A DNA stretch of 64,000 nucleotides, from the NCBI GenBank assembly GCA_964344485.1, contig CAYFNF010000003.1, forward strand, positions 148,467 through 212,466, read 5' to 3'. Under the pieces are notes generated by a model. That model had not been told where the DNA came from. It ran no database searches and worked only from the letters and a program-made list of their open reading frames with translations. Position 1 is the first letter of the stretch; the number at the start of each line of letters is the position of its first letter. Shown here one piece after another: positions 9,241 to 64,000 of the stretch. The translations under genes were made by a program, and so were the position numbers. Source of the stretch: an uncultured Gammaproteobacteria bacterium. GTDB lineage: Bacteria; Patescibacteriota; Patescibacteriia; UBA9570; XYC2-FULL-38-9.

Positions 9241-9915
9241 CTATTCGTCTTCGGATGCTGCTACTTCTTCTTTATACTCATCCAAAGTAATGCATGTTTG
9301 GTTTGCCCGGTCCCAACACTTACCTTCTCCACATGCGCAGTCATCAGTAGACCCTTGCCCACAGGTTAACCCTTCACCGCTGGCAATAGCTTCTTCTCGC
9401 GCTACCTGTGTTGCACAAGTGCCGGTGCATGTGGTGGGGTACTCAATCCAATCCCCGCCTTCAGCATTACATGCAGCAGCTTCTTCCTTGTCATGCTCTT
9501 TTGGGATTACGGTAAAATCCACAGGCGCTTCCTCTTCAACTGGTTCATCCGGCGTCTCAATTGCCATCTTGTACTCTTCCATTGTCATACAAGCTTCATG
9601 AATATCGTTCCAGCATAGGTTGTTACCGCAATCACAAGATACCCTCTCGGAAAACCCACATATAGGGTCATTTGTTTCGTTGAACACCGCTTCTCTGCAC
9701 GTATCAGTACAGCCAGAAAACAGTTCCCACGAACCTCCTGAATCTACACATCCTTCTATTTGGTCCCTGGTGGCGGTACCGCCTTTTTCTGCTTGCTTTA
9801 TCGCGTACGAAGTTGAGTTGTAATAGATGAAAAGACCGATAAAAACCAATGCTGATATTGCAAAAACAGTTATGACAGTAGCTATCAATATCACATCCAA
9901 TGGAGGGCGCTTCAT
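9241..9915 (-). CDS. membrane-anchored cysteine-rich protein with internally duplicated about 60-aa Cys module
   Basis: N-terminal TM helix; two copies of GG.W..(x)C..TC......C......C.CG...CWD.....C.T..EYK. Confidence 0.5.
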   Translation of the reverse strand: MKRPPLDVILIATVITVFAISALVFIGLFIYYNSTSYAIKQAEKGGTATRDQIEGCVDSGGSWELFSGCTDTCREAVFNETNDPICGFSERVSCDCGNNLCWNDIHEACMTMEEYKMAIETPDEPVEEEAPVDFTVIPKEHDKEEAAACNAEGGDWIEYPTTCTGTCATQVAREEAIASGEGLTCGQGSTDDCACGEGKCWDRANQTCITLDEYKEEVAASEDE

Positions 9916-23832: not shown

Positions 23833-26800
23833 TTATGCAGCAGCAGCTGGCGGCTCGGGTTGCTGACGATGTCGATGATGGCTGAACCATGCTATACCAA
23901 CTAAGAATATAATGACGATTCCAATGTTAATCATCACCAGCATGGTGGTGCTTGAGAGGCGATTCTTCTCTTCAATCACAAACCGCGTGATCTCGACCTG
24001 GTCAGATTTCACACCGTTTACTTCGGTTTGAGCAAAAACGACGTGATCTCCTTCACCGAGCAACTCTGCTGGAACCGTAATACTCCATTTACCGTTGGTG
24101 TCTACTTGCGCGACTTTTACTAATGGGTCTGAATAGATCGTCAGAATTGCCACAGCAGACATCTCTCTATACTGCTCAGCAATCTCTCCGGAGATAGTAA
24201 TCTCGTTCTTCTGTTCTTCGACTGTGCCGCCGAATAATCGTCTTGTTGCATCAATAATATCCCACTGCTGAACTTGCGTATAGGTGACGGTCCCATCATC
24301 TGATACCGTCGGTTCGATTGTAGTGCTATCTTGCTGGAACTCTATATCCGCAGTGTCTTGCAGCTGTCCAGTCTCGGTGGTCTGCAATTCTTCTCTTTGC
24401 TGCTTGGTCAGCGGCACGACTTCATCTGTATATGTATACGGATTCTCTGGCGGTTGTTTGACTCCATCCTCAGCATATTGTGTTTTTATTAGCTCTTCAA
24501 ATTTCTTTACGTTCACTACAACCACATCTGGAAGGCCGGTGTCGGTTGAACCCCCTTGGATTGGGTTGGTGCCGTACTTCACTTCATCACTATCTGATAC
24601 GCCGTCGTCATCAGAATCCGTGTCTGTTGGGTCAGAACCCAAATCCACTTCGTCGGAATCGCTTACCCCATCTTGATCTGAGTCCGCGTCTTCTGGATCA
24701 GTACCTAGCTCTTTCTCTTGTTCATCAGTCAGGCCGTCTCCGTCACTATCGGTCTCAGCTGGCTCGGTGTCAGTTCCTTGGTCAGGGCCTGGGTCTGTGC
24801 CCTGGCTCGGATCGCCGGTGTCAGTGTCTGGAGTATCAGTAGAAGGAGTTTCTTGAGGGGTGGCAGGGGCTACGGGTACGCTCACAGGAGCACTTACTGG
24901 TGCTGACACAGTAAAGGTGATTTCATTCGAAGTAGTCTCTGGATAGCCAGCTTGTTCAGAAGTGACAGCGTATGCAGTATGCGTGCCTGTAGATAGTGCA
25001 GATGGACGACATGCAACAGAGCTGGTCTCTCCACCACCAGTTGCAGTAGTATCGCAAATTCTCTGCCCATCAACATAGATTTGGGTATAAGCACCAGTAC
25101 GTGCTAATAGAGTAATCCATGGTCGGTTATATGATGTCTGCGCGTCCACCACAACTTGTTGCATCACTGCTGCAGGGTATGGGGTTGCGCGTACAATAGT
25201 CTGTGGAGTAAATACCTTTATCACAGTATCTTTTTTCGTATTCACGACCTTTACCTTGATCGCATTCGCTCCAATTGATAGTGCGGTGGTTGGTGTGCCC
25301 TGATATGAAATCACTGGACCAGTGTCGCTGGTAATAGCAGCAGTTCCGCTCAACGTACCGTTTACGAACAGTTGTACTGCAACATCATCCACTGAGATAT
25401 TTCCGATATAGACGTTACCGAAAAAGACCGGGTTCTTACTAAACGTCACATTCGAAGTCAATTTACTTCGCTCCTCTTTTGGATAGATATGAAATCGATC
25501 TGACACTACAGAAGATCCGACCGTATACCGGACACTGGATGTCTTTCCCACATTCCCTTTCTTATCTTCGATATTTGCCTCAGACGTATGTTTGTCGTAA
25601 TTCTTCTGGATCTGCGAATCTACCTCCCATTCTCCTTGCGCGTCTGTGGTGTCAGAACCGTCTAACTCACCTTCGGTATATACAGAAACTTCAGACTCTG
25701 TTTCAGCAGTTCCACTAAATGAAACGTATTGGTTGTAAACAATGTCATTTTGTTCTGGCTCTTCGATTACTGCTGCAGGCGGGCCGATTGAGAAACTCGC
25801 GGTCTTCTCCCACTCTGTGGAGCTGGATCTACTAGCGGTCTTCACTTTTGTGTACAGCTCCCAGAGTCCGCGCTTCAGTGTAAACTCTGTTTCTGCTGTG
25901 CCGTTACTGCCGACCTGTTCTTCATTGATCTTCTCTGCGCCGTTCTTTACGCGCACAAATTTAAACACCACCCACTGGCCAGTGGTTCCGGTTGCTGATA
26001 GCTCTACCTTCAGACGACCGGTATCCTCCTGTGCACTCAGTCGATGTACGCTCGAAGGATCACTTCGCAACTGCTCTCCATTTACTGTTAGTGCGGTGGG
26101 TAACAGTGATGACGCTGATCCTTCCTGTGTAGTGAATGAGTCTACTGAAGAGTTCGATGTATTACTACTCGCATCCGCGCTCACTACCTGATAGTAATAT
26201 GTAGTGCTGCTTAAAAGCCCTGATACAGTCACTGAATGGCTCTTTGTTAATCCACTAGTTGTTTGTGACTGCGGAATTTGCTCAGTCTTTCCATATCGTA
26301 CTTGTGATGTTGCTTTTTCATTCGTGGTCCAAGTAATAACCGCGGATGTAGAACGGCGAGTGACTTGAATATCTGAAATAGTGGGCGCCGAAAGGTCTCC
26401 AGTATCTGTGGTTGGGATTACTGACCCTGAAGTAAACTGAGATGTATTGTTTGATGAGTCTGTTAGCGTTGCAGTGACTTTATAGTTAGAAGCATATGAT
26501 TCTAGAGTGCTCTTGGGAACATCAACGCTCCATGTTAAACTCGTGACCGCTGCTTCTGTTATATAGACCTCGCCTTCATTATTCCGGTCTACAAAGACCT
26601 CCACTGTTCCGTCACTAGATGCAGTACCCGAGACAGTGTATGTATCTCCTTGCAAAGAAATTGCACTGATCACTGGGGTAGCAAGCCCCTCATTTGCTCC
26701 ATCAATTAGATTAATTCCACTTGAGGAGTTGTTATAGATAGAATTCTGTGTTACTAAATTGTATTTAGTTCCACTTTGAGAGATGTTCAATCCATCTGCA

Positions 26801-29202
26801 TAGGCGTTAGTAACTATGTTGCCCGGTCCAATGGTGTTGCTCTGACTAGTATTGGAGAGTGTTACTGCGTTCCACTGACACGGAAGCGGATCACCGTTTG
26901 TATCGATGCCGATCCTGTTTGATGAGAGAGTATTGTTTGAAGAGTCAGCAAATACCACACAGCGGTCTATATTGCCGATCACATTATCACTAATGGTGTT
27001 CCCAGTGCTGTTCGCTCGAATGATAATTCCATATACGTCATCCTGAGTAACAGGTTTCGTGATACCAATCCTATTACTGGAAATCACATTATTAATTCCA
27101 CCTTGCATTAGAATGTTCATGACATTGCCCGCAATAGTGTTGCTACCATTGATAGTGTTAGAACTGCCAGTGAGTTCAAGGCCGACAGCATTCTGCATCA
27201 CCGTTTGTTTACTCACTGCGAGGCCAATAGTATTCCCAGTGGCGGTGTTACTGTCTCCTTCAATCCATAACCCCACGCCGCTATGGTTAGAGATGAAATT
27301 CGTAGATATAGAATTACTATCGCTTTCAGTATCAATCACAAGACCGTTTGTGGTGTTTCCGATATTCGTATCACTTGCAGATACACCGATGTAGTTATCT
27401 GAGAGTGTGTTTGAATCAGAGGAATAGATAGCAATGCCCGATTCATTAAAACCAATGACATTAGATTGCGATGTTCCAATTCTACTATTTGATACTCCAG
27501 TAAATAGAATTCCGGTTCCAGTGTTCCCTCGATCGACTAGTGAAGCGTTGGTTCCAATATAATTACCCTCTATCGCTAGCTGAGAGATGTTTCCTGCGCT
27601 GCTATTTGCCTCAATACCATTTGATAGATTTCCAGAGATAGTATTCTTCGAAATCGATACCGCATTCGCGCTAATGGCAATAGAGATGCCATCCTCACCA
27701 TTCGAAACCGCTGCTCCACTTGAATCCAATCCAATAGTATTCTCAGTTATTGTGACATCGCTATCGTTTTCCAAGTAAATCCCATTTGCATCATTTCCTG
27801 AAATCACGTTATTCGGACCAATCGTTGTGTCTGCCCCACCAAAGATTCCGTCAGTATTTGGAATGGCTGTTCCAGAACTGTTTAATCCAATATAGTTCCC
27901 GGTGATTGTTCCAGTGCTCTGGTTCACTACTACCCCTGACTGGGTATTACCTGCAATAGTGTTGTTCGAAAGTGTATTCGCTCCTTGAAATGTTACACCG
28001 TTATTATTTTCAACTGCGCTCGTGCCGTTACTATCTACTCCGATATTATTCTTATTCACCGTGTTCCCAGATGTAGTTGCTTCTAAGAAGATACCTGACT
28101 TTGTATTGCCTGAAATTGTATTGCCAACGATCGTGTTATTGTTTCCGGTTACTCGAATACCTGAATCCCCATTAGTGGATTTTGTGGAACCGTCTGCAGT
28201 TATACCTATATAGTTCAAACCGATAGTACTGCTACTGCCTCGCAATTCAATTCCGTTGCTCGTATTTCCAGAGATGATATTGCGGAACGCTTGGTTGCTG
28301 CTATCTCCAATAGTGATGCCAGATACCGTCGCTGCTATATTAACTCCGTTTATCCCATTAGCGGTGATAGTGTTAGAACGCAATACATTAGTATTTGAAT
28401 TCTCGATAAAATTCACTCCCTGCTCAGAATTATTCGATATCGAGTTACCGGTTACCGTGGTGCTGGTTGCAGTGCCCCCAAAATAGATTCCGTTACGATT
28501 GCCTTTGATTGTGTTGCCTGAAATGGCATTATTACTCGATGCGACCTGAATGCCTTCACCCCCTGCAAAGCCTTCTATCGTGAAATTTGATATCTGACAA
28601 TTATCCGCTCGGATAGCTAGCCCATCATTATCTTGAGCTGCTGACAGCGCGCTCCCTTCAATGCCAACTCTGTTATCCCCATCGATTATAAGTTCATCAG
28701 TAATCGCGGGTAGCACACTTGAGGTTACTGCTATCTTTCCGTTTAATGAACTATTGAAACTGATCACGTCAGCACCAAGACTCGCGTTTGCATCGAGTAT
28801 AGCTTGCCGCAAAGATCCCGCACCGCTGTCATTCAAGTTTGACACAGTGAAATTAGCAGCATACGCGACTTTGATCTGATTCACCGGTAGCACTACAGAT
28901 GAAATTGCATACAAGAGAATAACCACTGCAACAAAGAACGCGGTGACTAACCCGCTGCGTAGTCGTATCTTTTTTCTGCGACTGTGATGCTCATGATACG
29001 AAAAACCCCAGATCCCTTTATGGTCTTGGTCATATAATGTACAGAATGTGTGCTGAGGTGGATAGAAAATGATATAGAAATATTCGTACAGCACGTATGC
29101 TATATATAGTGGAACGAGCGCAATGCCTAAAAGGACACGAATAATGAACGGTCGGGGTTTGGCTTGTACGTAGCACTCAATATGATTGATGGTTTTTTTC
29201 AT
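23833..29202 (-). CDS. giant cell-surface protein (1789 aa): N-terminal TM/signal, GSLRQAI (CSLREA-like) motif, many parallel beta-helix repeats, FN3-like domain, TSP3-like Ca-binding D-x-D-x-D-G repeats, C-terminal TM anchor
   Basis: Repetitive N.I.GN...GI units typical of right-handed beta-helix; DSDGDGLTDEQE/DSDQDGVSDSDE/DSDDDGVSDSDE repeats; C-terminal hydrophobic LVMINIGIVIIFLVGIAWF + HHRHRQQ. Confidence 0.8.
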   Translation of the reverse strand: MKKTINHIECYVQAKPRPFIIRVLLGIALVPLYIAYVLYEYFYIIFYPPQHTFCTLYDQDHKGIWGFSYHEHHSRRKKIRLRSGLVTAFFVAVVILLYAISSVVLPVNQIKVAYAANFTVSNLNDSGAGSLRQAILDANASLGADVISFNSSLNGKIAVTSSVLPAITDELIIDGDNRVGIEGSALSAAQDNDGLAIRADNCQISNFTIEGFAGGEGIQVASSNNAISGNTIKGNRNGIYFGGTATSTTVTGNSISNNSEQGVNFIENSNTNVLRSNTITANGINGVNIAATVSGITIGDSSNQAFRNIISGNTSNGIELRGSSSTIGLNYIGITADGSTKSTNGDSGIRVTGNNNTIVGNTISGNTKSGIFLEATTSGNTVNKNNIGVDSNGTSAVENNNGVTFQGANTLSNNTIAGNTQSGVVVNQSTGTITGNYIGLNSSGTAIPNTDGIFGGADTTIGPNNVISGNDANGIYLENDSDVTITENTIGLDSSGAAVSNGEDGISIAISANAVSISKNTISGNLSNGIEANSSAGNISQLAIEGNYIGTNASLVDRGNTGTGILFTGVSNSRIGTSQSNVIGFNESGIAIYSSDSNTLSDNYIGVSASDTNIGNTTNGLVIDTESDSNSISTNFISNHSGVGLWIEGDSNTATGNTIGLAVSKQTVMQNAVGLELTGSSNTINGSNTIAGNVMNILMQGGINNVISSNRIGITKPVTQDDVYGIIIRANSTGNTISDNVIGNIDRCVVFADSSNNTLSSNRIGIDTNGDPLPCQWNAVTLSNTSQSNTIGPGNIVTNAYADGLNISQSGTKYNLVTQNSIYNNSSSGINLIDGANEGLATPVISAISLQGDTYTVSGTASSDGTVEVFVDRNNEGEVYITEAAVTSLTWSVDVPKSTLESYASNYKVTATLTDSSNNTSQFTSGSVIPTTDTGDLSAPTISDIQVTRRSTSAVITWTTNEKATSQVRYGKTEQIPQSQTTSGLTKSHSVTVSGLLSSTTYYYQVVSADASSNTSNSSVDSFTTQEGSASSLLPTALTVNGEQLRSDPSSVHRLSAQEDTGRLKVELSATGTTGQWVVFKFVRVKNGAEKINEEQVGSNGTAETEFTLKRGLWELYTKVKTASRSSSTEWEKTASFSIGPPAAVIEEPEQNDIVYNQYVSFSGTAETESEVSVYTEGELDGSDTTDAQGEWEVDSQIQKNYDKHTSEANIEDKKGNVGKTSSVRYTVGSSVVSDRFHIYPKEERSKLTSNVTFSKNPVFFGNVYIGNISVDDVAVQLFVNGTLSGTAAITSDTGPVISYQGTPTTALSIGANAIKVKVVNTKKDTVIKVFTPQTIVRATPYPAAVMQQVVVDAQTSYNRPWITLLARTGAYTQIYVDGQRICDTTATGGGETSSVACRPSALSTGTHTAYAVTSEQAGYPETTSNEITFTVSAPVSAPVSVPVAPATPQETPSTDTPDTDTGDPSQGTDPGPDQGTDTEPAETDSDGDGLTDEQEKELGTDPEDADSDQDGVSDSDEVDLGSDPTDTDSDDDGVSDSDEVKYGTNPIQGGSTDTGLPDVVVVNVKKFEELIKTQYAEDGVKQPPENPYTYTDEVVPLTKQQREELQTTETGQLQDTADIEFQQDSTTIEPTVSDDGTVTYTQVQQWDIIDATRRLFGGTVEEQKNEITISGEIAEQYREMSAVAILTIYSDPLVKVAQVDTNGKWSITVPAELLGEGDHVVFAQTEVNGVKSDQVEITRFVIEEKNRLSSTTMLVMINIGIVIIFLVGIAWFSHHRHRQQPEPPAAAA

Positions 29203-37601: not shown

Positions 37602-40544
37602 TTACCAATCACACGTGGACAACGTTGCGGTTGCCTGTAAATTACCCGACGAATCAATATAGATACAGTGTAATTGACTGTCTTGCCCGTATATATACAA
37701 CCCTCTGCTCACATGAGTAGCATCATGCCCGAATCCTGATCCAGTTGCTCGTCTCGTCAACTCTCCGCCAATATGCATGGTCCACATATACGTAGCATCA
37801 AATACTATGCCCCCTGGAATCTGGCCAGGAATCATACCAATGCCTTTAGCGGTTTCTTTCGAAATATCAAATATTGCCGTACCGTACCCTCCGGCTCCGC
37901 CACCACCTGCAAAAATAATCCAGATGTTAGCTCCATCAAACGCGACATCTACTGGCTTAGTTAGTCCTGTTGATGCGAGACTAAAGGTTCGGAAGTTGTT
38001 GGTCTTAGTATGCAGTTGAATTAATTCATTATTTGCTGCACTAGCAATCCAGAGATACTGTCCGTCATACGCCATCCGTTCTAACGACCCAGCTTCAAAC
38101 CCTGATATGACTGTATCCACTGCCATGGTGTCAATATTAATCTTAATCACCTGACCATTCGGTTTATCAATAGCCCAAATAAAACCATTAGCAAAGATCA
38201 TATCGATAATACGACCAAACCCACCTGCGACCACTTGAAAATTACTACCACCCCAATTCACATACCCAATCTGGCCCGCAACATTCCCTGCCCATATGCG
38301 AGCGTATTGATCATGTGTGGAACTCACTGGCTGCCCAAGTCCAGAAATAGTCGTCGTTGTTGCCGTATCATCTCGTAGTTGCACTTTTTTAATCTGATTG
38401 CTTGAACACAATATATAGATAGTTTCATCACGCAGCACCATGGTACGACAAGTGATCTCAGTAAAGTCATAATCCAATACTTTTCTCTTATCCACTGCGT
38501 TGTATCGATAGAGCCAGTCACCGGTAAGCACCCATACATCAGATCCATCAAACAACATGTCATCTACATTATTAGAAGTTCCTAGGCTCGTATTTCCTGC
38601 ATCCACATATGCATTCTGGTAGATACCGTCCCCGGAGTTTTCATTTGGATAGAACTGCCCGCCGATGAACTCTGCCTCACCTATAACCATGCCGGTATTT
38701 GCATGTAGTGCTAAGCCGAATTCATCCACTTTAATAATGACTCCTGATCCTTTATTCGACATATCCACCTGTATACCAGTTGCTGTCTCACCGCCTGCTT
38801 CGACACGTATACCGTATTTATCCGTTGTTGATGTTGTTGTATGAGTGTTTTGCGCGAGAAGTGCTGTAGAATTAGACCCATCAGACGTAAACCACCCACC
38901 GTATCCAGCAGTAGCAAACGTGGATGTGCCTACGACTCCGGCCCCTCCGCTTCCTGTCGAGGATCCAAATACCGCGTGTTCATTCACACTGATAGCATGA
39001 ACTGCTGTGTTATCAGTGGAATAGCCGAACACACCATGCTCGGTGTCACCGGTACCGATTACTGCTGATCCGTCAGCCACAATTGCCGTGACTGTTGCTG
39101 GGTCGATGTTATGAACGGTTGAAACTATACCGTAGCCTGGGCTTGAAGTGCTCACTGCTGTATTCTTCACTGTCAACACAATATCATTCTGCAACTGATC
39201 TTCCATATAGACCTTTGCAGTAAAATTTCCTGAGTAGGTTGGCCCACCAAGATACGCACAATTCGATGTCTGGTTACACATCACACCTCCATAATACGTC
39301 GTAGCATCCGCGGAGTTTGCGTATAACCCGTAATTTAACTCACTATGTGCAACAACTCCCATGTCTGAATTACCAGCACCATATACTCCTGCCCCACCTG
39401 CGGTGGATTCAGCATACCCAACCACACCGTAGGTTGAATCACTTAGTCCGAGCACTCCTTCACTTCCAGAGGTCGGGAACGACGCAGCTGGTACAGGTAC
39501 TGAACCCGAAACTGACCCTGAATCTGAACGTAATCCAATACCTCCAGCGGTATTACTGACCAGCACTGAAGCGTCTGGACTAGTTACGGCACTAGAAAAA
39601 GTTCCTGCAGGTCCTGTTCCTGTACTTGATGCTACTCCAGTTGCACCGGTTGTTCCTTTGACATTTACTCCTGTATGCGCTCCATCAACAAACACCTCTA
39701 ATGCATCAGCGACAGTAATAGGCGCAGCGCCGTCACCAATAGCCGCGGGGCCTTGAATAAATGCTGCATGGCTGGGATTTCCTAAGTCTGTATAATGGCC
39801 AGATGTCGTATTTTCTGCGTGCACTGCTACACCAGTATCAGAAGTAGTATACACTCCATCCGCGCCGCTCGTACCAACCGCGTATATACCTTTATAAGAG
39901 CCGTCGACATACACGGATAGACCGTCTGCAGTAGTAATCGGTGTGCTCCCTGAACCTATAGCTCCAGGGCCGCTTAAGTACGCAGCATGCGCAGGTGTAC
40001 TGAGATCGATAGAATATGATGATGTGGTGTTATTTGCAAAGATTGCTGGCGCTGAACCAGAAGCAGTAATTACCGACATGCCTGGACCGGCTCCGTCTTG
40101 TTGAATCTGAACTCCATTCACCCATGAATTCGTCACCACAGCAATGGCATTAGTTCCAGAGTCTTGGTGGTCGATATTTAACGACTCTCCTGAGGTGGTT
40201 ATAATTGCTATCTCCCCGTTGCCTGTACCAATAGATGGATCAATAAATAGATCTACTGCGGTTGCAGCTTGCTGTACAGCCAAGGTATTTTCCAACACCG
40301 TAGTTCCAACCACTGTTAATGAATCACCGAGTGTGAGTGGGCCTGCTTTGGTTTGCGCTGCAGTAGAGAGGTTAATTGGTGCTGAAACATTGCAAGATGC
40401 GTGTGTTGGCCCGTCTACATCAGGGTCACATGTAGGCTGATTCCAGGCTGCACGCGCATAAGGCGCAACAAGAAACATACAGAGAGAAATAACAAAAAAA
40501 CCAGTGAAATACTGCGAAAATCGTGTTATAAACTCTGTTTTCAT
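37602..40544 (-). CDS. large secreted/surface protein (about 980 aa): signal peptide, Gly/Thr/Ala-rich beta-rich N-terminal half, C-terminal probable beta-propeller
   Basis: Signal-like MKTEFITRFSQYFTGFFVISLCMFLVAPYARA; start chosen at 40544 because a TTGACG-18-TATAAT promoter for the divergent gene lies at 40547-40576. Confidence 0.55.
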   Translation of the reverse strand: MKTEFITRFSQYFTGFFVISLCMFLVAPYARAAWNQPTCDPDVDGPTHASCNVSAPINLSTAAQTKAGPLTLGDSLTVVGTTVLENTLAVQQAATAVDLFIDPSIGTGNGEIAIITTSGESLNIDHQDSGTNAIAVVTNSWVNGVQIQQDGAGPGMSVITASGSAPAIFANNTTSSYSIDLSTPAHAAYLSGPGAIGSGSTPITTADGLSVYVDGSYKGIYAVGTSGADGVYTTSDTGVAVHAENTTSGHYTDLGNPSHAAFIQGPAAIGDGAAPITVADALEVFVDGAHTGVNVKGTTGATGVASSTGTGPAGTFSSAVTSPDASVLVSNTAGGIGLRSDSGSVSGSVPVPAASFPTSGSEGVLGLSDSTYGVVGYAESTAGGAGVYGAGNSDMGVVAHSELNYGLYANSADATTYYGGVMCNQTSNCAYLGGPTYSGNFTAKVYMEDQLQNDIVLTVKNTAVSTSSPGYGIVSTVHNIDPATVTAIVADGSAVIGTGDTEHGVFGYSTDNTAVHAISVNEHAVFGSSTGSGGAGVVGTSTFATAGYGGWFTSDGSNSTALLAQNTHTTTSTTDKYGIRVEAGGETATGIQVDMSNKGSGVIIKVDEFGLALHANTGMVIGEAEFIGGQFYPNENSGDGIYQNAYVDAGNTSLGTSNNVDDMLFDGSDVWVLTGDWLYRYNAVDKRKVLDYDFTEITCRTMVLRDETIYILCSSNQIKKVQLRDDTATTTTISGLGQPVSSTHDQYARIWAGNVAGQIGYVNWGGSNFQVVAGGFGRIIDMIFANGFIWAIDKPNGQVIKINIDTMAVDTVISGFEAGSLERMAYDGQYLWIASAANNELIQLHTKTNNFRTFSLASTGLTKPVDVAFDGANIWIIFAGGGGAGGYGTAIFDISKETAKGIGMIPGQIPGGIVFDATYMWTMHIGGELTRRATGSGFGHDATHVSRGLYIYGQDSQLHCIYIDSSGNLQATATLSTCDW

Positions 40545-40546
40545 TT

Positions 40547-40576
40547 CGTTGACGGTTAGGCCATTTTTAGTATATA
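40547..40576 (+). promoter_or_regulatory. sigma-70-like promoter for 40605 gene (TTGACG, 18 bp, TATAAT)
   Basis: Consensus-like hexamers 28 nt upstream of ATG in divergent intergenic region. Confidence 0.4.
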
Positions 40577-40604
40577 ATATCAACACATTCATCGCAATAG
40601 CACT

Positions 40605-57028: not shown

Positions 57029-59071
57029 ATGTCTGCATCCACACCACTATCACAGTTACACGGAGTCGGGCCTTCAATAATGAAGCGTTTGAAAGTTCTT
57101 GGCATTACCACCACACATGATTTAATGTGGCACTTTCCACGTCAGTATGAGGACCGTTCACTCATGACTGATATTATTGACGTAGAACCGGATAGCAAAG
57201 TGACTATCCACGGCACGATTGAAAAAATACAGTCACGTCAGTCGTGGAAACGTCGTATCAACCTCACTGAAGCAACTGTTACTGATACTACAGGATCTAT
57301 AAAAGCGATCTGGTTTAACCAGCCGTACGTAGCAAACACACTAAAAAAGGGGGATACAGTACAGCTCTCTGGTCAAGTAAAGAAAACCAAGTACGGAACG
57401 TCTCTGCAGAGCCCGGTCTATGAGAAAGTATTTGAAGAAAAAGATACGACGCATACTGGGCGCATTGTTCCAAAGTACTCCCTGACAAAGGGTGTAACGC
57501 AAAAGCAACTTCGGTATTTTATGAAGCAGGCGCTGGAAATAGAACTCCCGGTTGAGGATTACGTCCCTGAAGAGATACTACAGGAGTACGAATTATTTCC
57601 TTTAGCTGATGCACTGCAACATATTCACTTCCCCACTTCTGAGCAGGACTTTCTTCAAGCAAAACAACGATGTGACTTCGACTCACTCTATATCATTCAG
57701 CTCTATGCGCAGCTCCTGCGTCAAGAGTTGCAATCTCAGCAAGCCTCCAGTATCGAGTTCCAGGAACGTGCGATAAAACACTTTGTTGACGAGCTCCCGT
57801 TTACGTTAACCAATGCACAAAAGAAAGCATCATGGGCCATTCTACAGGATGTAGAGAAACAGACCCCGATGAACCGGCTGCTTATTGGAGATGTTGGATC
57901 AGGAAAAACCATAGTGGCAGCGATCGCGATGTTGAATGCAGTTTTAAATGGCGCGCAAGCTGCGCTCATGGCGCCAACAGAGATTCTAGCAAAACAGCAC
58001 TATCAGACACTACAAGAAGTATTTGACACAAAGAACATCACGATTGAATTGCTCACTGGTTCTACAAAAAACGGACCAAAGCAACAACAGCTTGAAGGGT
58101 GTGCGTCTGATATCGTTGTCGGTACACACGCGTTAATTCAAGAGAGCGTCACGTTTAACAATTTAGGTCTAGCTATAGTGGATGAGCAACATCGGTTTGG
58201 GGTAGAACAACGAAAAGCGCTGAAATACCAGTCTGGGGATGAAAAAACTGCGCCGCATCTGCTGTCCATGACCGCCACCCCGATTCCACGAACATTAGCG
58301 CTAGCATTATACGGAGACTTAGACCTCTCTATTATTGATGAACTACCGACAGGTAGAAAGCCAGTCACTACGAATCTTGTTCCCCCAAACAAGCGAGAGG
58401 ATGCATATGGATTTATCCGGGAACACCTCGACCGCGGAGAGCAGTGTTTTGTGGTCTGCCCTCTGATTGATCCTTCGGATACGCTGGAAGTCAAAGCTGT
58501 CACCACAGAGTATGAACACTTGTGCAACGAAGTGTTTCCTGAGTACCAGTTAGAGATTCTACACGGAAAGATTCAGCCACAGGAGAAAGATGATATCATG
58601 CAACGCATGCGTAATAAGGAGATCGACATCTTGGTCTCCACATCTGTTATTGAAGTTGGAGTAGATATTCCGAATGCGACAATTATCGTAATTGAAGGTG
58701 CGGACAGATTTGGATTAGCACAACTACATCAATTCCGTGGTCGAGTCGGTCGTTCTGATACACAGTCATACTGCTTGCTCTTCTCCGAATCAGATAATGA
58801 ACAGACTATTAAACGGCTACAGGTACTGACGAACACCTATGATGGATTCAAGCTTGCAGAACAAGACTTACAGCTGCGTGGAGCTGGAGAGTTCTTTGGT
58901 AAAAATCAGACCGGGTTCTCCCCATTAGCAATGCTTGCGTACCAGCAGCCACAATTACTAAACAGTGCTCGCTCAGCAGCAAAACAAACACTAGCGAAGG
59001 ATTATATCTCTTCCACGCCATTGCTAAAAAAGAAAATCACTGAATTTACAAAAAGCATCCACTTAGAGTGA
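57029..59071 (+). CDS. recG: ATP-dependent DNA helicase RecG
   Basis: Wedge/OB N-terminus, helicase motif I GDVGSGKT, DEQHRFGV motif II, motif VI FRGRVGR. Confidence 0.9.
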   Translation: MSASTPLSQLHGVGPSIMKRLKVLGITTTHDLMWHFPRQYEDRSLMTDIIDVEPDSKVTIHGTIEKIQSRQSWKRRINLTEATVTDTTGSIKAIWFNQPYVANTLKKGDTVQLSGQVKKTKYGTSLQSPVYEKVFEEKDTTHTGRIVPKYSLTKGVTQKQLRYFMKQALEIELPVEDYVPEEILQEYELFPLADALQHIHFPTSEQDFLQAKQRCDFDSLYIIQLYAQLLRQELQSQQASSIEFQERAIKHFVDELPFTLTNAQKKASWAILQDVEKQTPMNRLLIGDVGSGKTIVAAIAMLNAVLNGAQAALMAPTEILAKQHYQTLQEVFDTKNITIELLTGSTKNGPKQQQLEGCASDIVVGTHALIQESVTFNNLGLAIVDEQHRFGVEQRKALKYQSGDEKTAPHLLSMTATPIPRTLALALYGDLDLSIIDELPTGRKPVTTNLVPPNKREDAYGFIREHLDRGEQCFVVCPLIDPSDTLEVKAVTTEYEHLCNEVFPEYQLEILHGKIQPQEKDDIMQRMRNKEIDILVSTSVIEVGVDIPNATIIVIEGADRFGLAQLHQFRGRVGRSDTQSYCLLFSESDNEQTIKRLQVLTNTYDGFKLAEQDLQLRGAGEFFGKNQTGFSPLAMLAYQQPQLLNSARSAAKQTLAKDYISSTPLLKKKITEFTKSIHLE

Positions 59072-59094: not shown

Positions 59095-60081
59095 TTAATA
59101 TGAACAGCCGTGCCCGGTCCATTCGTAGTGCATGTAGTCTTTTACACTGCTCCAATCTCCGCCCCACATAAACCCTTCATTCTTAAACGCATTGATTAAC
59201 CAATCTGGATAGTCACAAGCGTCTGTTCCAGTAGTAGCGTTGTAGTTTGCACACATATCTGAGGAGAATTTCTCAGTGGTGTAACACGACATGGTTTTTT
59301 TACAGTTTGGATTGTTGCTCCAATTCACATCAATAGCAAAGCCGAATGAGTGATTACTGTAACACGAGGGATTGTTTACGTTTTGACGCCAGGCCCATGT
59401 TCCCGTATGACCAAATTCAATATCATATTGAGATGACGGGTGACCGTAATTATATGCAGCTATGGTTGCAAATGCATTTTCAAACGCGAGCTGTGCATCT
59501 TTATGGACTGCAAGTGTTTTTGCATGGTCGTCCACTCCATCATCAACCGTAATGCGCACTAAGTAATTTGTGTCCACGTAATCCTTATCAAATAAATTCT
59601 CATACTTTCCTGCTAGGCAGGTCTGCATACCACTTGTACAGTTGCTAGGATCACCATCTGCCATAAATGACAGTTCTGGTACGTCAATATCTCCATAGAT
59701 AGTAAATGTTGGACTGATCATATTAATGATAGTCCACGAAAGAAGTGCGATAACCAAACCGATCAGTGCATTCGTAATACGATCCTTCCCTTCGGATACT
59801 TTCTCTTTATTTCCAGCTGCTAGCGCCCATTGCGCACCACCAAAGATTATCATCCCTACTGCAACAATCGCGATACCGCTCACCAAGAACTGGTACATTG
59901 CAGCAAGATAGTTTGGCAGATACGGTTCAGTAATATTCTGCAGTACTCCAAGGCCAACTTCTAGTTTGATCACCGCCGCTGAGACTACCATAGGAAACGC
60001 TCCACAAAAAGCCATCACAGTCGTCAGTATTCTCCGCGGAGTGAAGCGAATTGATGATGTGTGTATTGTTTTTCGAGACAT
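59095..60081 (-). CDS. membrane protein: VirB2/TrbC-like signal + two-helix hairpin module fused to C-terminal M15-family peptidoglycan peptidase domain
   Basis: Shared N-module motif IKLEV.LG...Y..FL...IAIVAVGMIIFGGAQWALAAGN.EKV.E.K.RITNAL.GLVIALLSWTI; C-terminal HSFGFAID (HxxGxAxD), FMWGGDWSS, DYMHYEW zinc-peptidase M15 signatures. Confidence 0.6.
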   Translation of the reverse strand: MSRKTIHTSSIRFTPRRILTTVMAFCGAFPMVVSAAVIKLEVGLGVLQNITEPYLPNYLAAMYQFLVSGIAIVAVGMIIFGGAQWALAAGNKEKVSEGKDRITNALIGLVIALLSWTIINMISPTFTIYGDIDVPELSFMADGDPSNCTSGMQTCLAGKYENLFDKDYVDTNYLVRITVDDGVDDHAKTLAVHKDAQLAFENAFATIAAYNYGHPSSQYDIEFGHTGTWAWRQNVNNPSCYSNHSFGFAIDVNWSNNPNCKKTMSCYTTEKFSSDMCANYNATTGTDACDYPDWLINAFKNEGFMWGGDWSSVKDYMHYEWTGHGCSY

Positions 60082-60162
60082 GTAAAATCTCTAATCAAAT
60101 AGTGTCAATACTATTGTACAAGAAAATAGCAAAAAGTCAATCTACAATCCTCCTACACTCCC

Positions 60163-60909
60163 TTATCCCTCTTGCTGAATTTTTTCGATCTCCTGCTCTA
60201 CTAACACGCGCATCTCTTCAATCGTCTTCTCTCCAGTAACAAAAGTATCATTAATGAAGTACGATGGGGCTGAGTCAATCTGCAATGTCTTTGCAATATA
60301 GTATCCTTGTACAACGAGTTGCTTTTTTGATGTACCTGAGACGCACTCAGAAAACGTTTCAGTGTCTAAACCAATATCTTCAGCAATGGAGACCCAAGGA
60401 TTCAGAATAAACTGGTCTTGATCAAAGAATAGGAGATCATGGTACGCCCAAAAAGAATCCTGGTCTTGTGCGCAGCGTGCTGCCATAGCAGCGGTCTCAG
60501 AATTTTCATGTAATCGTGGAATTGGAAAGTCCTTCCACACATGCAAAACATCATTCGGATACTCTTGAACAATCTGCTCTATAATCGGGGACATGCGTTT
60601 ACACGCTTCACATTCAAAATCACCAAATTCAACGATAGTTACTGTTGGGCTCGCTGCGCCGCGCTGCGGATCAGTTGTTAATGGTCTGGGTGTGCTATCA
60701 CTCCCGTCAATTCCAGAGGGTACTTGAGTAATCAGCGGGTCGTACGGCATGGCACTGCCGGAGACCACCTCTCCATTGGTCGCGGTCTCAGTCCCTTGAT
60801 CAATATCTGACGCAGCATGATTTGTTACTGTAGCGCTTGCAACAAATAAAATGGCGATACAAACAGCACCGAGAACAAATATAAGAACTGCGCGGTTTTT
60901 CTTTTCCAT
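60163..60909 (-). CDS. DsbA-like thiol:disulfide oxidoreductase (membrane-anchored thioredoxin fold)
   Basis: N-terminal TM, thioredoxin CEAC active site in FGDFECEACKRMSPI context. Confidence 0.65.
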   Translation of the reverse strand: MEKKNRAVLIFVLGAVCIAILFVASATVTNHAASDIDQGTETATNGEVVSGSAMPYDPLITQVPSGIDGSDSTPRPLTTDPQRGAASPTVTIVEFGDFECEACKRMSPIIEQIVQEYPNDVLHVWKDFPIPRLHENSETAAMAARCAQDQDSFWAYHDLLFFDQDQFILNPWVSIAEDIGLDTETFSECVSGTSKKQLVVQGYYIAKTLQIDSAPSYFINDTFVTGEKTIEEMRVLVEQEIEKIQQEG

Positions 60910-60912
60910 ATG

Positions 60913-62151
60913 TTACTCTAATTCAATCTTAATTAAGCTGCCAGTGGTGGAGTCTTTAAAATAGAGCGTCTCTTCATCGTCGGACACGACCATATAATCG
61001 ACCGAATATGACGCTGTTCCATTTTCATCCACTGGAGTTGCTAGCTTAGTTTTAATTCCGGTGCTCAAATTAATCTTATAGATATCGTCCGCAACATCAT
61101 TCAGTAGTCGCGGTTCTAAACCGTATGCATCTACATCTTCTGCTGGGATGCCACAGTACGCGGTACCGCCATCACTACTGATCGTACATTTATCAGCAAA
61201 CGTATTAACGTTCAACTCTTTTCTATTTTTACCGATATCATCGCCATCCGAGTCCACAATCCATAGCGACGGTTTATAACCTGTACTACTGGAGTAGACG
61301 CTATAGAGTGCTTGCTTTCCGTCGGGTGTGTATTGATATTGCAGGCCCTTACCTTCAACAATGGTTCCTTTAAAGTTCTCTCCTTTTAATCCGATAAAAC
61401 CAAGTTCTTGCCTATTAAAATCAATAAACTCTGCCCAAGTAGCAGCGACTTTCCCAGTCGGAGACCACTCGACATTCACGCGATGTGCATTATTTCCAAG
61501 TGACTCTAACGTCCGTGCTGATGAGCCGTCAGGGCTGGACACTGCAAGTACTCGACGTTCTGGATCGATATGCATGTACTTGAATGCAATCTGATTTGAT
61601 GTCGGAGAGAAATCAAACTCTTCGTACTCCTTCGGTAGAGTGACTTGTGTATTTGAGTCCAGATCATAGTAGACATTAGTACCATCGGGAAATTCTAAGA
61701 TAGTTTCATTTGTTGTGTCTGCCCATGTGACTGTATCTACTGAGCTAAATCGGGCATCACTCAATGCGGTAACCTCACCGTCTGCATTTACTTTATAGAA
61801 CTTTCCGTCTTCTGCGTCATAGTAGCGCAGCGTACCATCTTTTGCTACTGACGGATCCTGTGCGTCTGTATCCGGAGTAAGAATGTCGGTTGCGGTATTT
61901 CCGCCTAACGCAACAGCGTCCACACCTGGAACAGTGGTGGTGGTATTGATGTTTGGCTCTGCGTTGTTTACATTCTCAAGTAACTCATTCACATTCGGGA
62001 GGCCGATATTAGCGTTGTTCACATTTTCATTGGTAACATCAGGCGGCGGTTGTCTAAAAAACACAATATACAGTAAATATGCAAGAGCGATCACTGTGAC
62101 CACAAAAAGTATGATCAACAGCGTTCTTTTTAATTTAGGGTTTAGTGCCAT
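60913..62151 (-). CDS. membrane-anchored PD40/TolB-like beta-propeller protein
   Basis: N-terminal TM; repeated [SYW](S/T)PDG/T..(I/A)... blades (FSPTSNQIAF, WSPTGKVAAT, YTPDGKQALY, SSDGGTAY). Confidence 0.5.
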   Translation of the reverse strand: MALNPKLKRTLLIILFVVTVIALAYLLYIVFFRQPPPDVTNENVNNANIGLPNVNELLENVNNAEPNINTTTTVPGVDAVALGGNTATDILTPDTDAQDPSVAKDGTLRYYDAEDGKFYKVNADGEVTALSDARFSSVDTVTWADTTNETILEFPDGTNVYYDLDSNTQVTLPKEYEEFDFSPTSNQIAFKYMHIDPERRVLAVSSPDGSSARTLESLGNNAHRVNVEWSPTGKVAATWAEFIDFNRQELGFIGLKGENFKGTIVEGKGLQYQYTPDGKQALYSVYSSSTGYKPSLWIVDSDGDDIGKNRKELNVNTFADKCTISSDGGTAYCGIPAEDVDAYGLEPRLLNDVADDIYKINLSTGIKTKLATPVDENGTASYSVDYMVVSDDEETLYFKDSTTGSLIKIELE

Positions 62152-62171
62152 ATAAATACTATCTTAATAAT

Positions 62172-63317
62172 TTATACACATTTATGTTGCGAGCCGTCCC
62201 AGGTAGTACCAGGCGTACAGTCGTCACATTTATCGTCCGTACATCCTCTTCCAGGTCCTTGACACTGATAATCTGCAGTACATTCATCTCCTGGACTGCC
62301 GTCGAAACACTCATTCGCCCACTCAAATGAACAGTACATGAGCGGACTATCTCCTCCGTAACAATCTGTGTCCCCGTCGCACGAATCTCCTTCTGCTTTT
62401 GGAGTACAGGAACTGCTCACACACTTAAATCCAGAAATACAATCACTTGAGTTTACGCACGGAAGACTATCTGACCCATCACCAGTAATACAGAAATTCT
62501 CTACTGTATTACATATTCCTGACTTACAGACACTATCTGATGTACAATACGCACCTTCAGAACGATTATTCTGAGTCAAGCACTTCTTTGACGGGTCTCC
62601 TTCACAGACAAACCCGGTTTCACAGTCTGCTTCGCTCGCACAGAGCGTTCCAGAGGTAGCAGTCGTACAAACCCCAGGTGCAGACGGACTCCCGCCAGCA
62701 CACGTCATGGGTTCTATACAATTTTCATCGCGTTGACATGCTGCGCCTTCACCGTTCGTATTTGTTCCGGTTGGACGACAGACCGTTAACCCCTCACCTA
62801 CATTCACACACTCACAGCCTCCCACACAGTAACTCACGCTCGTACACGCTGATTCTGCTCCACCTGGACATTCGGTCCAGTCAGAGGTAGTACCGTCACC
62901 CGAAGCCGTAAATTCAATCCCTGTTGGACAGATATTACCGAAAATCACCATTCCATCACTAATAATGCTCATTATGGTATAAGACAGCAAAGCGAGCACC
63001 AGCCCGAGCAGTGCATTAGTAATACGTGACTTAGCTTCGTTTACTTTCTCTGAATTACCTGCAGCAAGTGCCCACTGTGCTCCACCGAACATAATCATAC
63101 CCACTGCAACAACAGCAATTGCTTGAATTAAAAACGTATACACTGCGGTAATGTACTCACCTAAGCTAATTACTTGTTCGAGAGTGCCAACTTGCACTTC
63201 TAACTTAATTGGACTGGTAATACAATCCTCTGCAAACGCAGGGAAAGCAGCGATAAACAGCCCAGTCATGACTGCGGCGAGTAATGGTATTCTTTTGTAG
63301 AGATAATGTTGTTTCAT
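62172..63317 (-). CDS. membrane protein: paralogous VirB2/TrbC-like N-module fused to large Cys-rich extracellular domain (about 40 Cys)
   Basis: N-module about 55% identical to that of 59095..60081 (VVAVGMIMFGGAQWALAAGNSEKVNEAKSRITNALLGLVLALLSYTI); C-terminal G.C/C..C repeats. Confidence 0.55.
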   Translation of the reverse strand: MKQHYLYKRIPLLAAVMTGLFIAAFPAFAEDCITSPIKLEVQVGTLEQVISLGEYITAVYTFLIQAIAVVAVGMIMFGGAQWALAAGNSEKVNEAKSRITNALLGLVLALLSYTIMSIISDGMVIFGNICPTGIEFTASGDGTTSDWTECPGGAESACTSVSYCVGGCECVNVGEGLTVCRPTGTNTNGEGAACQRDENCIEPMTCAGGSPSAPGVCTTATSGTLCASEADCETGFVCEGDPSKKCLTQNNRSEGAYCTSDSVCKSGICNTVENFCITGDGSDSLPCVNSSDCISGFKCVSSSCTPKAEGDSCDGDTDCYGGDSPLMYCSFEWANECFDGSPGDECTADYQCQGPGRGCTDDKCDDCTPGTTWDGSQHKCV

Positions 63318-63322
63318 ATGTT

Positions 63323-64000
63323 TTAAAAAATTGCACTAGCTATTTCATCAACTAAGGAGGTGACCCCTAGTTCTTGTAACGCAGACATGGCTTCTTGTAG
63401 ACGTCCCCAATTCCATGGGGTCATCAGAGCAACAGCTGCGCTAACAATGACTAGAGCGAAAATATATTGAGCAGCCATGGAGATGAATATCAGGAACTCT
63501 GTAAATAATAGTAGAACGAACAGAGCTTTTTGCGCCATGTCCGGCTCTTCAAACATCTTTGTAGATTTTAGGAACTGAGAGATAAAGCCCAGTACTGGGA
63601 TCTCTGGTAGTAGATAGTATCCGAAAAAATGTAGATGAATGTAAATTAGTGTTGATGGATCACAGCAACAGAGATCTTCGGGTAGAGCAATAAACATCTC
63701 CCATAACCACATGCGACTTCCTGGCTTTGCCATACTCGATGCATCTGCAGCAGCTCCAGCTGCATCTGCAGCGCCTCCAGCTGCATCTGCTGCACCGCCA
63801 GCGCCTTTTGCTCCTTGCTTGTCTTTTCCGAGTTGAGATGCTGCTCCAGCGCCTGCTGCAAGTCCAGCTCCAGCAACAGCGCCTGCTCCGGCTCCTACTG
63901 GTCCAGCAGCGGCTCCAGCGCCTGCTCCGGCTGCGGCAGCTCCACCAGCTCCAGCAGCGGCTCCTGCTCCAGCGCCTGCTCCGGCTGCGCCTGCACCCGC
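63323..64000 (-). CDS. membrane protein with Gly/Ala-rich low-complexity N-terminal region (partial, continues past window end)
   Basis: Reading frame stays open upstream of annotated MAKPG through GCNGCNGGN repeats to the window edge; C-terminal part has 3 TM helices. Confidence 0.4.
   Translation of the reverse strand, partial: AGAGAAGAGAGAGAAAGAGGAAAAGAGAGAAAGPVGAGAGAVAGAGLAAGAGAASQLGKDKQGAKGAGGAADAAGGAADAAGAAADASSMAKPGSRMWLWEMFIALPEDLCCCDPSTLIYIHLHFFGYYLLPEIPVLGFISQFLKSTKMFEEPDMAQKALFVLLLFTEFLIFISMAAQYIFALVIVSAAVALMTPWNWGRLQEAMSALQELGVTSLVDEIASAIF

Follow-up and report, generated by a model that had tools for sequence, protein, structure and literature searches.

Type IV secretion systems (T4SSs) of Patescibacteria have been published together with their VirB2-like pilins, arrays of pilin genes and, in the class ABY1, the presence of recG, radA, and comF near the T4SS genes (Quinonero-Coronel et al., 2025, PMC12102498). 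Most VirB2-bearing genomes were found to be without VirB1 (PMC12102498). In Southlakia, which belongs to the class Saccharimonadia, the T4SS and the pilins are essential (Wang et al., 2023, PMC10633639). Its annotated pilins are about 138 amino acids (aa) long, and its DsbA family gene (SEML1_0787), which is marked ES in two of the three essentiality columns of the transposon sequencing (Tn-seq) table, stands apart from the T4SS genes (SEML1_0006-0019) (PMC10633639). Here, we describe the minus-strand genes at positions 59095-64000 of a 64,000-nucleotide stretch of a Patescibacteria genome (contig CAYFNF010000003.1; the whole stretch is called the window below), which encode an exported protein with 34 Cys and an oxidoreductase of the DsbA type. 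Very probably, these genes form a module of T4SS pilin fusions in which a DsbA-like gene is embedded. An earlier note on this DNA had taken the two proteins for a private folding pair, but the interval appears, from its homologues and gene order, to lie at the distal end of a T4SS-like locus on the chromosome of Patescibacteria, and its nearest relatives are of the Kerfeldbacteria type. We take these relatives to belong to the GTDB class ABY1.

As judged from the related loci, the locus would resemble the described Patescibacteria systems (PMC12102498, PMC10633639) in the block of VirB4, PrgI (VirB3)-like, and TraC-like genes with genes of the pilin family PF18895 nearby, in the several divergent pilin genes per locus, and in the chromosomal position near recG and radA seen in the class ABY1. 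It differs from that of Southlakia, where the pilins are small and the DsbA gene is unlinked, whereas large pilin fusions and an embedded DsbA-like gene are found here. Because of this difference, the arrangement looks lineage-specific. VirB1 is mostly missing from the systems surveyed in PMC12102498, whereas in the window a cell-wall hydrolase is fused to a pilin domain. The main texts of PMC12102498 and PMC10633639 make no mention of a thioredoxin or DsbA gene in the T4SS locus, and neither do two supplementary files of PMC12102498, one of them in the part that was available. Likewise, a propeller protein and Cys-rich or hydrolase-fused pilins are not mentioned in the main text of PMC12102498. 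In the searchable literature, the coverage of which is incomplete, no report was found of a DsbA-like protein as a conserved member of a T4SS locus, of the propeller, of pilins fused to Cys arrays or hydrolases, or of DsbA-like variants without a CxxC motif.

Two other kinds of system offer parallels. In F-like T4SSs, the disulfide isomerase TrbB accompanies the Cys-rich TraN (22 Cys), TraU, and TraH (PMC11315126). As in the window, the locus of an F-like plasmid encodes its own thioredoxin-fold protein along with unusually Cys-rich extracytoplasmic components. However, F-like systems work in the periplasm of diderm cells with the DsbC/DsbG-like TrbB and TraF, whereas the enzyme of the window is predicted to be membrane-tethered and DsbA/BdbD/ScsC-like, in a cell with no outer membrane. 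Unlike in F-like systems, the putative Cys-rich client is fused to a pilin domain, and the likeness to TrbB and TraF is a functional analogy only. TraN is a surface protein for contact and mating-pair stabilization. The second parallel is found in monoderms, in which BdbD with BdbC of Bacillus subtilis and MdbA with VKOR of Actinobacteria are membrane-associated DsbA-like oxidases that act on exported pilin-type proteins. Their substrates are sortase pilins and pseudopilins of the type IV or competence kind that have one or a few disulfides, whereas the window encodes VirB2-like fusions with about 16 predicted disulfides. BdbD and MdbA also have a known partner in BdbC or VKOR, but such a partner was not found in the window. 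An MdbA-like oxidoreductase family is enriched in the candidate phyla radiation (CPR), and a role in the folding of type IV pilins has been proposed for it; VKOR is often its neighbor (bioRxiv 10.1101/335083).

By calling of open reading frames (ORFs), five co-directional genes are visible in the row, separated by gaps of 5, 20, 3, and 81 nt. The Cys-rich protein and the thioredoxin-fold protein with a CEAC motif are both encoded on the minus strand where the earlier note had placed them. That note had set the two genes side by side. They do share the row, and their linkage recurs in dozens of species-level genomes, but a gene for a 412-aa protein (60913-62151) lies between them.

The gene at 62172-63317 encodes 381 aa, among which 34 are Cys (about 40 had been claimed): C32 just after the signal peptide, C130, and 32 more between aa 150 and 380. 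This Cys content, 8.9%, stands against 0.8% in 1014 neighboring ORFs of related loci, and about 3 Cys would be expected in a protein of this kind. More than a generic ectodomain protein, the product has a signal peptide, a pilin domain, and an array of 4-Cys modules. The signal peptide covers about aa 1-29, with n, h, and c regions ending in AFA|ED. PF18895 (T4SS_pilin) matches aa 52-118 (62964-63164) with 34.0 bits against a gathering threshold of 26.6 (E 3e-8), and it matches all 17 members of the Cys-rich pilin family. Matches to TrbC/VirB2 (PF04956) are weak, with E 0.45 for the protein of the window and 0.0055 at best among the family members, and the NCBIfam model of the Mbov_0395 pilin-like conjugal transfer protein of mycoplasma integrative and conjugative elements (ICEs) was reached below its cut-off (E 1.2e-5). 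AlphaFold2 (AF2), run with the 17-sequence alignment, gave a model with a mean pLDDT of 74.9, in which the signal-peptide helix, a small hairpin, two long helices (52-84 and 89-119), a low-confidence linker, and the exodomain follow one another. The two hydrophobic helices of the pilin domain are joined by the basic loop SEKVNEAKSR. A typical mature VirB2 pilin subunit has roughly 70-130 aa, a size that is well exceeded here by 381 aa with a C-terminal exodomain of 250 aa. The Cys-rich protein thus appears, from its domain match and modeled helices, to be a new form of VirB2-like pilin.

The Cys-rich exodomain (aa 130-381; 62175-62930) was delimited by a scan for 4-Cys modules, by Cys conservation, and by the AF2 model. 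It consists of six or seven tandem modules of the form C-x5-C-x(4-9)-C-x(4-10)-C, with the consensus G..C..D.DC..G..C, and each module is modeled as a short beta-hairpin. From aa 150 to 381, the pLDDT is 75-90. The 17 homologues, at 33-45% identity, have 29 of the 34 Cys in common without exception. When the exodomain was used as a HMMER query against 1.84 billion cluster representatives, 27 proteins were found, about 19 of which have the pilin-plus-Cys architecture. The family is small and fast-diverging. The exodomain has no significant match in Pfam or the Protein Data Bank (PDB). A fold like that of Dickkopf, whose N-terminal Cys-rich domain belongs to the colipase-fold family, had been suggested for it, and three concordant pointers lead there, none of them significant: Pfam Dickkopf_N (PF04706) in 3 of the 17 family members (best E 0.0053, the protein of the window itself being without a match), Dkk4 (PDB 5o57) as the top Foldseek match of the model (E 0.21), and the same 5o57 as reached by the family profile among PDB sequences (E 0.64). 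Dickkopf_N is the sole family that all three weak searches recovered, and it shares with the exodomain short disulfide-stapled beta-hairpin modules and a similar Cys spacing. However, the modules of the window are bacterial, stand in six or seven tandem repeats, and are attached to a pilin, so that resemblance rather than membership is meant. The knottin or EGF-like fold that had also been proposed was dropped, since no such Pfam match appears in the 17 members at E up to 1. Isolated weak matches to EB, DSL, and Toxin_29 were seen in one family member each.

Two further ideas on single Cys residues were set aside. A lipoprotein is rejected because C32 lies outside any lipobox (AFAEDC). A disulfide between C32 and C130 that staples the ends of the pilin hairpin, in analogy to the head-to-tail cyclization of P-type pilins, is speculation only, and the model is unconfident in this region. 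Both residues are invariant in the Cys-rich family, but Cys at both ends occurs in just 14 of the 86 pilins collected from the related loci and the window.

The Cys arrays could also bind metal, as zinc or Fe-S type clusters, with the DsbA-like protein being unrelated to them or a reductase. Many Patescibacteria live in anoxic groundwater with no obvious electron sink for the formation of disulfides, no VKOR or DsbB is found in the window, and the closest PDB sequence relatives of the DsbA-like domain include ScsC-type copper-resistance proteins. Nevertheless, metal binding is very improbable. The domain is placed outside the cytoplasm, the 34 Cys include one CxC and one CxxC, with no metal-knuckle spacing and no conserved His, the modules resemble disulfide-rich hairpins with the weak pointers to Dickkopf_N given above, and the Cys counts are mostly even.

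The second protein in question is a membrane-anchored DsbA/BdbD/ScsC-like thiol-disulfide oxidoreductase of 248 aa (60163-60909). It matches Thioredoxin_4 (PF13462) with 79.2 bits against a cut-off of 23.2 (E 5.5e-22) and DSBA (PF01323) with 43.8 bits against 25.6 (E 3.3e-11), and the PDB sequence relatives of its domain include 3gyk, ScsC-type proteins, and BdbD (3eu3, E 7e-11). The active site is C100-E-A-C103 (codons at 60601-60612), and there are a second Cys pair, C146/C189, and a cis-Pro, P215. CxxC, C146/C189, and P215 are invariant in a 17-sequence alignment of CxxC-bearing homologues. The N-terminus reads KKNR followed by about 20 hydrophobic residues, with a maximum 19-residue hydropathy of 2.94. 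Such a segment stands ahead of the thioredoxin domain in all 56 homologues examined (hydropathy >1.6), and loss of a signal or transmembrane segment in a corrected gene model, which by the earlier note would have refuted the proposed folding pair, is not the case in any of them or in the window. The DsbA-like protein is therefore predicted to face outward. The CxxC is intact in 51 of the 56 homologues, and its inner dipeptide is highly variable (EA, EN, PA, PY, WY, GP, and others). The enzyme is an ordinary member of its family, and it is its location that is informative.

Between the two genes lies that of a membrane-anchored beta-propeller (60913-62151; 412 aa), as assigned by AF2, Foldseek, and homologues. 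It has a transmembrane helix at aa 5-32, a disordered Asn-rich linker at aa 40-72, and then the propeller, which was modeled with repeated four-strand sheets (pLDDT 87.3). Foldseek returned TolB, oligogalacturonate lyase, and other propellers with E of about 1e-10 and probability 1.0. The protein of the window has no Pfam match of its own, while PF07676, PF26549, and PF26550 are annotated on some of its homologues. Each of 80 homologues compared has both C322 and C333. No other part of the module is as well conserved a marker as the propeller, which has at least 156 homologues, and 363 loci that contain it were found in species-representative genomes. The named ones are all Patescibacteria and include Kerfeld-, Falkow-, Uhr-, Magasanik-, and Komeilibacteria.

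The link to type IV secretion comes from the related loci. ORFs were called in 80 loci from species-representative genomes (numbered from L001) and labeled by profiles of the proteins of the window and of L001. The one close homologue found in a word-indexed search, P0002 (39% identity), is encoded on a contig with the same order of Cys-rich pilin, propeller, DsbA, and pilin-VanY, and this block lies directly downstream of PrgI-like, TraC-like, and VirB4-like (DUF87/P-loop_TraG) genes. T4SS-linked relatives of the module occur in Kerfeld-, Falkow-, Uhr-, and Magasanikbacteria. The recurrent upstream block consists of large membrane proteins, PrgI-like, TraC-like, and VirB4 genes, and a gene for an anchored protein of about 200 aa. 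It is followed by an optional pilin fusion, the propeller, the DsbA-like gene, one or more pilin fusions, an ORF of about 450 aa (RadA-like by its sequence motifs in L015), and a convergent ORF of about 680 aa. The DsbA-like gene comes directly after the propeller in 50 of 78 loci, which belong to several candidate phyla, and at the second position in 2 more; a pilin fusion comes next after DsbA in 39 of 47 loci, and in another 2 a single gene separates them. The 18 loci with another gene directly after the propeller mostly have a ComF-like context, along with a few ORF-calling failures in high-GC contigs. In L021, L026, L030-L032, L035-L037, L041, L042, L061, and L069, the gene after a propeller paralogue or orthologue is for a ComF-like phosphoribosyltransferase that begins with a Cys-rich, zinc-ribbon-like segment, and no DsbA or pilin gene was seen within 10 kb. 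In a DsbA-centered scan of metagenomes, seeded with a 5-sequence alignment, the order propeller-DsbA-pilin was found in all three of the closest hits with usable flanks (39-47% identity), while more distant hits had mixed contexts, some outside Patescibacteria. The 99-aa pilin domain alone gave no match as a query in the word-indexed protein search.

The window ends inside the gene that precedes the Cys-rich pilin. This partial gene (63323-64000, minus strand, 3' part) encodes an Ala/Gly-rich, low-complexity stretch and, C-terminal to it, a hydrophobic region in which the motif CCC occurs, and its product is matched by the profile of the L001 gene (E 2.3e-38). The homologues in L001 and L004, of 404-419 aa, are encoded after the VirB4 block and ahead of the Cys-rich pilin, and in L001 the protein includes an extreme Asp/Glu-rich tract. 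In these and other homologous loci, which have an identical downstream order, T4SS genes including VirB4 are found, and we infer that a VirB4 block lies just beyond position 64000. In a contig index, the exact Cys-rich protein is absent, and the exact DsbA-like protein occurs only on contigs of 1.3-2.3 kb. That this placement rests on synteny counts against the assignment to a T4SS. When the proteins of the window are compared with those of its nearest relatives, identity is highest for the propeller (57-67%) and declines through DsbA (37-51%) and the Cys-rich pilin (39-42%, about a quarter of which is contributed by the Cys residues themselves) to the peptidase-fused pilin described below (28-44%). 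Since identity drops from the propeller to the pilin fusions, the payload-carrying proteins are the fastest-evolving part.

Whether the DsbA-like enzyme serves the Cys-rich pilin can now be considered. A functional link between the enzyme and the Cys-rich exported proteins is supported at the level of sequence and gene order. All three exported neighbors of the DsbA gene have conserved Cys, while the products of the upstream cytoplasmic or polytopic T4SS genes have 0-3. The best reading, which we hold to be probable with modest confidence, is that an oxidoreductase or isomerase of the locus folds disulfide-rich surface proteins, comparable to what is proposed for TrbB with TraN in F plasmids. 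That the enzyme acts on these very exodomains seems only slightly better than an even prospect, and the propeller with C322/C333 and the peptidase-fused pilin with 8 Cys are equally likely as clients. Of the private oxidative-folding pair that had been proposed, the conserved linkage, the outward-facing DsbA, and the near-invariant Cys have held up, while the private and dedicated status is not supported.

Several observations weigh against this folding role. First, DsbA is absent from the module of eight loci with Cys-rich pilin fusions, which have up to 30 Cys. Among the ABY1 genomes without a linked DsbA are CP181398.1 and OZ246416.1. Conversely, DsbA stands beside pilins with 0-1 Cys in L029, L049, L050, and L052. 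Second, the direction of the redox reaction cannot be read from the sequence because the CxxC dipeptide varies so widely. Oxidase and isomerase are not decidable in this way, and an isomerase role is as plausible as that of an oxidase since about 16 disulfides would have to be placed. Third, among the ORFs of the window there is no Pfam match to VKOR or DsbB, one of which would re-oxidize the enzyme. Finally, both catalytic Cys are replaced in five loci (SAES, NAET, DSNM, NPDL, and SGYS). In one of them, L004, such a CxxC-less protein is encoded beside a 34-Cys pilin of the same family as that of the window and a propeller with 60% identity to that of the window. In this case, the disulfides must arise elsewhere, or else the DsbA-like protein would do non-redox work.

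It is therefore to be asked whether the enzyme is a general housekeeping oxidoreductase of the extracytoplasmic space, like MdbA or BdbD, that is merely sited in a T4SS locus with demanding clients. The absence of a second DsbA-like gene from the window, the encoding of Cys-rich exported proteins far away in it (e.g., at 9241-9915, with 16 Cys), the eight loci just mentioned, the distance of the Southlakia DsbA gene from the T4SS cluster, and the description of the CPR-wide MdbA-like family as general are all in its favor. We nevertheless consider it rather unlikely, because the position after the propeller is conserved in the 50 of 78 loci across several candidate phyla and because copies without CxxC are retained in place, as would hardly be expected of a pure housekeeping oxidase. 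Moreover, extra paralogues occur elsewhere on the contigs of L028, L039, and L056 and as triple arrays in L109, L113, and L127, and a division of labor is therefore possible. The last three are low-GC metagenome contigs, on which three DsbA-like paralogues form tandem or near-tandem arrays unlinked to propeller or pilin genes.

In the CxxC-less variants (L004, L011, L013, L014, and L056), the cis-Pro and the second Cys pair are retained along with the membrane anchor, the gene has stayed in its place, and CxxC was apparently lost at least three times independently. L056 has a second DsbA, with CPAC, 6 kb off. The variants recall TraF of the F plasmid, a thioredoxin-fold T4SS protein without CxxC, and they suggest an additional function of the protein in the module that is not redox chemistry. 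Could it then be mainly a non-catalytic assembly factor or chaperone, TraF-like, that holds the pilin fusions or the propeller? The full length of all five variants, along with the features they retain, is consistent with this, as is the start of the DsbA gene 3 nt from the stop of the propeller gene, which suggests co-translation of a complex. Since the CxxC is intact in the window and in the great majority of homologues (51 of 56), and since its invariance along with P215 in the CxxC-bearing alignment is the signature of a redox enzyme, a mainly non-catalytic function is unlikely. The two roles are not mutually exclusive.

The last gene of the row (59095-60081, minus strand; 328 aa) encodes a second pilin fusion. 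It combines T4SS_pilin (37.4 bits, E 2.7e-9) with an M15/VanY-like peptidase (Peptidase_M15_4, PF13539; 62.5 bits against a cut-off of 25, E 5.8e-17), and PHROG endolysins also match it. It contains SNHSFGFAID (SxHxxGxAxD) and DYMHYE (DxMHxE), which we take to be the zinc-ligand motifs of the M15_4/VanY family. Its exodomain has 8 Cys. An M15 pilin fusion is found in the same position in L001, L005, L006, and L008, and the protein is probably the cell-wall hydrolase of the system, as judged from its domain and motifs.

Such fusions proved to be the rule. When the 86 pilin-domain proteins of the related loci and the window were compared with Pfam, PF18895 matched 76 of them. The fused domains were SLT (12 members), VanY (7), Peptidase_M15_4 (6), and Peptidase_M15 (4), of which the last three overlap so that their counts are not additive, followed by GDSL lipase (3), Phage lysozyme, SLT_3, and Peptidase_M23 (2 each), and the C39-like Peptidase_C39_2, Peptidase_C70, Peptidase_C39, NlpC/P60, and CHAT (1 each). 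The recognizable fused domains are cell-wall or envelope hydrolases, and the remaining extensions have no known domain, like the Cys-rich domain of the window. The extensions contain 4.4% Cys as compared with 0.8% in the 1014 other ORFs, and the Cys count is even in 59 of 82. Each of the residues Y55, Y60, G79, G87, K96, and G105 and a Pro (alignment position 121) of the pilin core occurs in at least 90% of the 86 sequences. Plain pilins of VirB2 size were not found in the 80 loci, in which ORFs were called down to 70 aa and the shortest pilin-domain protein has 208 aa. In loci of the Uhr- and Magasanikbacteria type (e.g., L054, L071, L073, and L082), many pilins have 8-18 Cys between the signal peptide and the helices, and these N-terminal insertions are also extracytoplasmic in position. 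After the first pilin fusion, L007, L009, L011, L013, and L014 have a small ORF (140-163 aa, 2 Cys), and in L007, L009, and L013 a second pilin-fusion gene comes after it.

The pilin fusions, which have 300-900 aa, may be polymerizing subunits. It is a serious possibility, though one to which we give less than even weight, that they are not pilus subunits at all and that the hairpin is an anchor or a handle for recognition by the T4SS, with the extensions as tethered or delivered effectors. The large extensions of every pilin-domain protein in the 80 loci, all of at least 208 aa, and a repertoire that looks like payload (SLT, VanY/M15, GDSL lipase, lysozyme, M23, and papain-like domains) agree with this, and a globular load of 250 aa per subunit would probably be sterically difficult in a VirB2-type filament. 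However, the pilin core is well conserved, which argues for a specific interaction beyond anchoring, and the pilins of the Southlakia T4SS locus are essential.

The analysis shows the identities and domain architecture of the genes, the outward orientation, the conservation of the Cys, and the conserved synteny with T4SS genes. The redox reaction, the set of clients, the display on a pilus, and the adhesin role belong to a proposed mechanism. With the enzyme taken as a folding factor of the locus, the following course of events can be proposed. VirB2 and TraA expose both of their termini to the outside. The pilin fusions would be exported by Sec, and their helical hairpin would insert so that the basic loop is cytoplasmic and the two ends are external, an orientation based on the VirB2/TraA topology and on the positive-inside rule as applied to the basic loop. 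Because both ends of the hairpin would be outside, the Cys-rich and enzymatic extensions would be extracytoplasmic. The DsbA-like enzyme, tethered on the same face of the membrane, would introduce or reshuffle the roughly 16 disulfides of the exodomain, and the Cys pairs of the propeller and of the M15 fusion are probable further targets. The disulfides would give stable, protease-resistant surface structures, and the folded fusions would be presented at the cell surface or by a filament associated with the T4SS. In this position, the Cys-rich domain, which evolves fast, could act as a contact or adhesion module toward the host cell, and the fusions to M15 (elsewhere to SLT, lysozyme, or M23) could cut the cell wall in a VirB1-like function. 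More tentatively, the pilin hairpin could in ABY1-type Patescibacteria be a universal carrier of polymorphic payloads that the T4SS would display or deliver at the host contact, both disulfide-knotted recognition domains and cell-wall hydrolases (M15, SLT, lysozyme, M23, lipase, papain-like), with the DsbA-like protein and the propeller as dedicated factors for maturation and assembly.

The module is bounded by an ORF of 680 aa (57029-59071, plus strand) that is convergent with the M15 fusion gene. This helicase-like ORF is presumably recG, and the convergent ORF of about 680 aa occupies the recG position in most related loci. A profile search of the ORFs found no T4SS, pilin, or DsbA genes in the window beyond this row, and a promoter and terminator scan gave nothing that exceeds shuffled expectation. 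A phage or mobile origin was rejected, as the PHROG matches are limited to the endolysin similarity of the M15 fusion, the GC content is even, and the neighbors are housekeeping genes. Elsewhere in the window, the gene at 9241-9915 (minus strand) had been said to carry a different duplicated Cys module, and indeed its 224-aa product has two 8-Cys repeats, with Cys spacings of 13,4,13,8,2,5,8 and 14,4,18,8,2,5,8, behind an N-terminal hydrophobic segment. It adjoins sigma-70 and primase genes and has no match in Pfam, NCBIfam, or PHROG. The remaining large genes noted are all on the minus strand. The product of 18215-23764 (1849 aa) matches M48 peptidases in its N-terminal part and has an ABC1 kinase-like domain at its C-terminus. 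That of 23833-29202 (1789 aa) is probably a surface protein, as it contains beta-helix/NosD, a purple-acid-phosphatase N domain, and bacterial TSP3 repeats. Those of 14671-18210 (1179 aa) and 37602-40592 (996 aa) have no Pfam and no significant NCBIfam match.

A large share of uncultured bacteria are Patescibacteria, and their apparent mode of life is attachment to host cells. In the only member amenable to genetics, a T4SS-like system and its pilins are essential for this lifestyle (PMC10633639, PMC12102498). In a large sub-group, as represented by the 363 loci in species-representative genomes, the pilin genes appear to be fusions to disulfide-rich domains or hydrolases, and the locus supplies its own oxidoreductase and a conserved propeller. 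These proteins are candidates for the host-recognition and wall-cutting parts of the T4SS, and the hydrolase-pilin fusions are a candidate explanation of the missing VirB1, at least in this clade. Even if the link between the enzyme and the Cys-rich pilin is trivial, a corrected annotation of five genes remains. The DsbA-like protein and the Cys-rich pilin form a candidate enzyme-substrate pair that is amenable to expression and assay in vitro without cultivation, and the CxxC-less variants are a natural experiment that separates redox from scaffolding functions. If the pilin hairpin is indeed a carrier module, the Cys-rich pilin fusions would be host-range determinants of these episymbionts, and the locus would represent a pilin-effector fusion mode of type IV secretion that is undescribed for other T4SSs.

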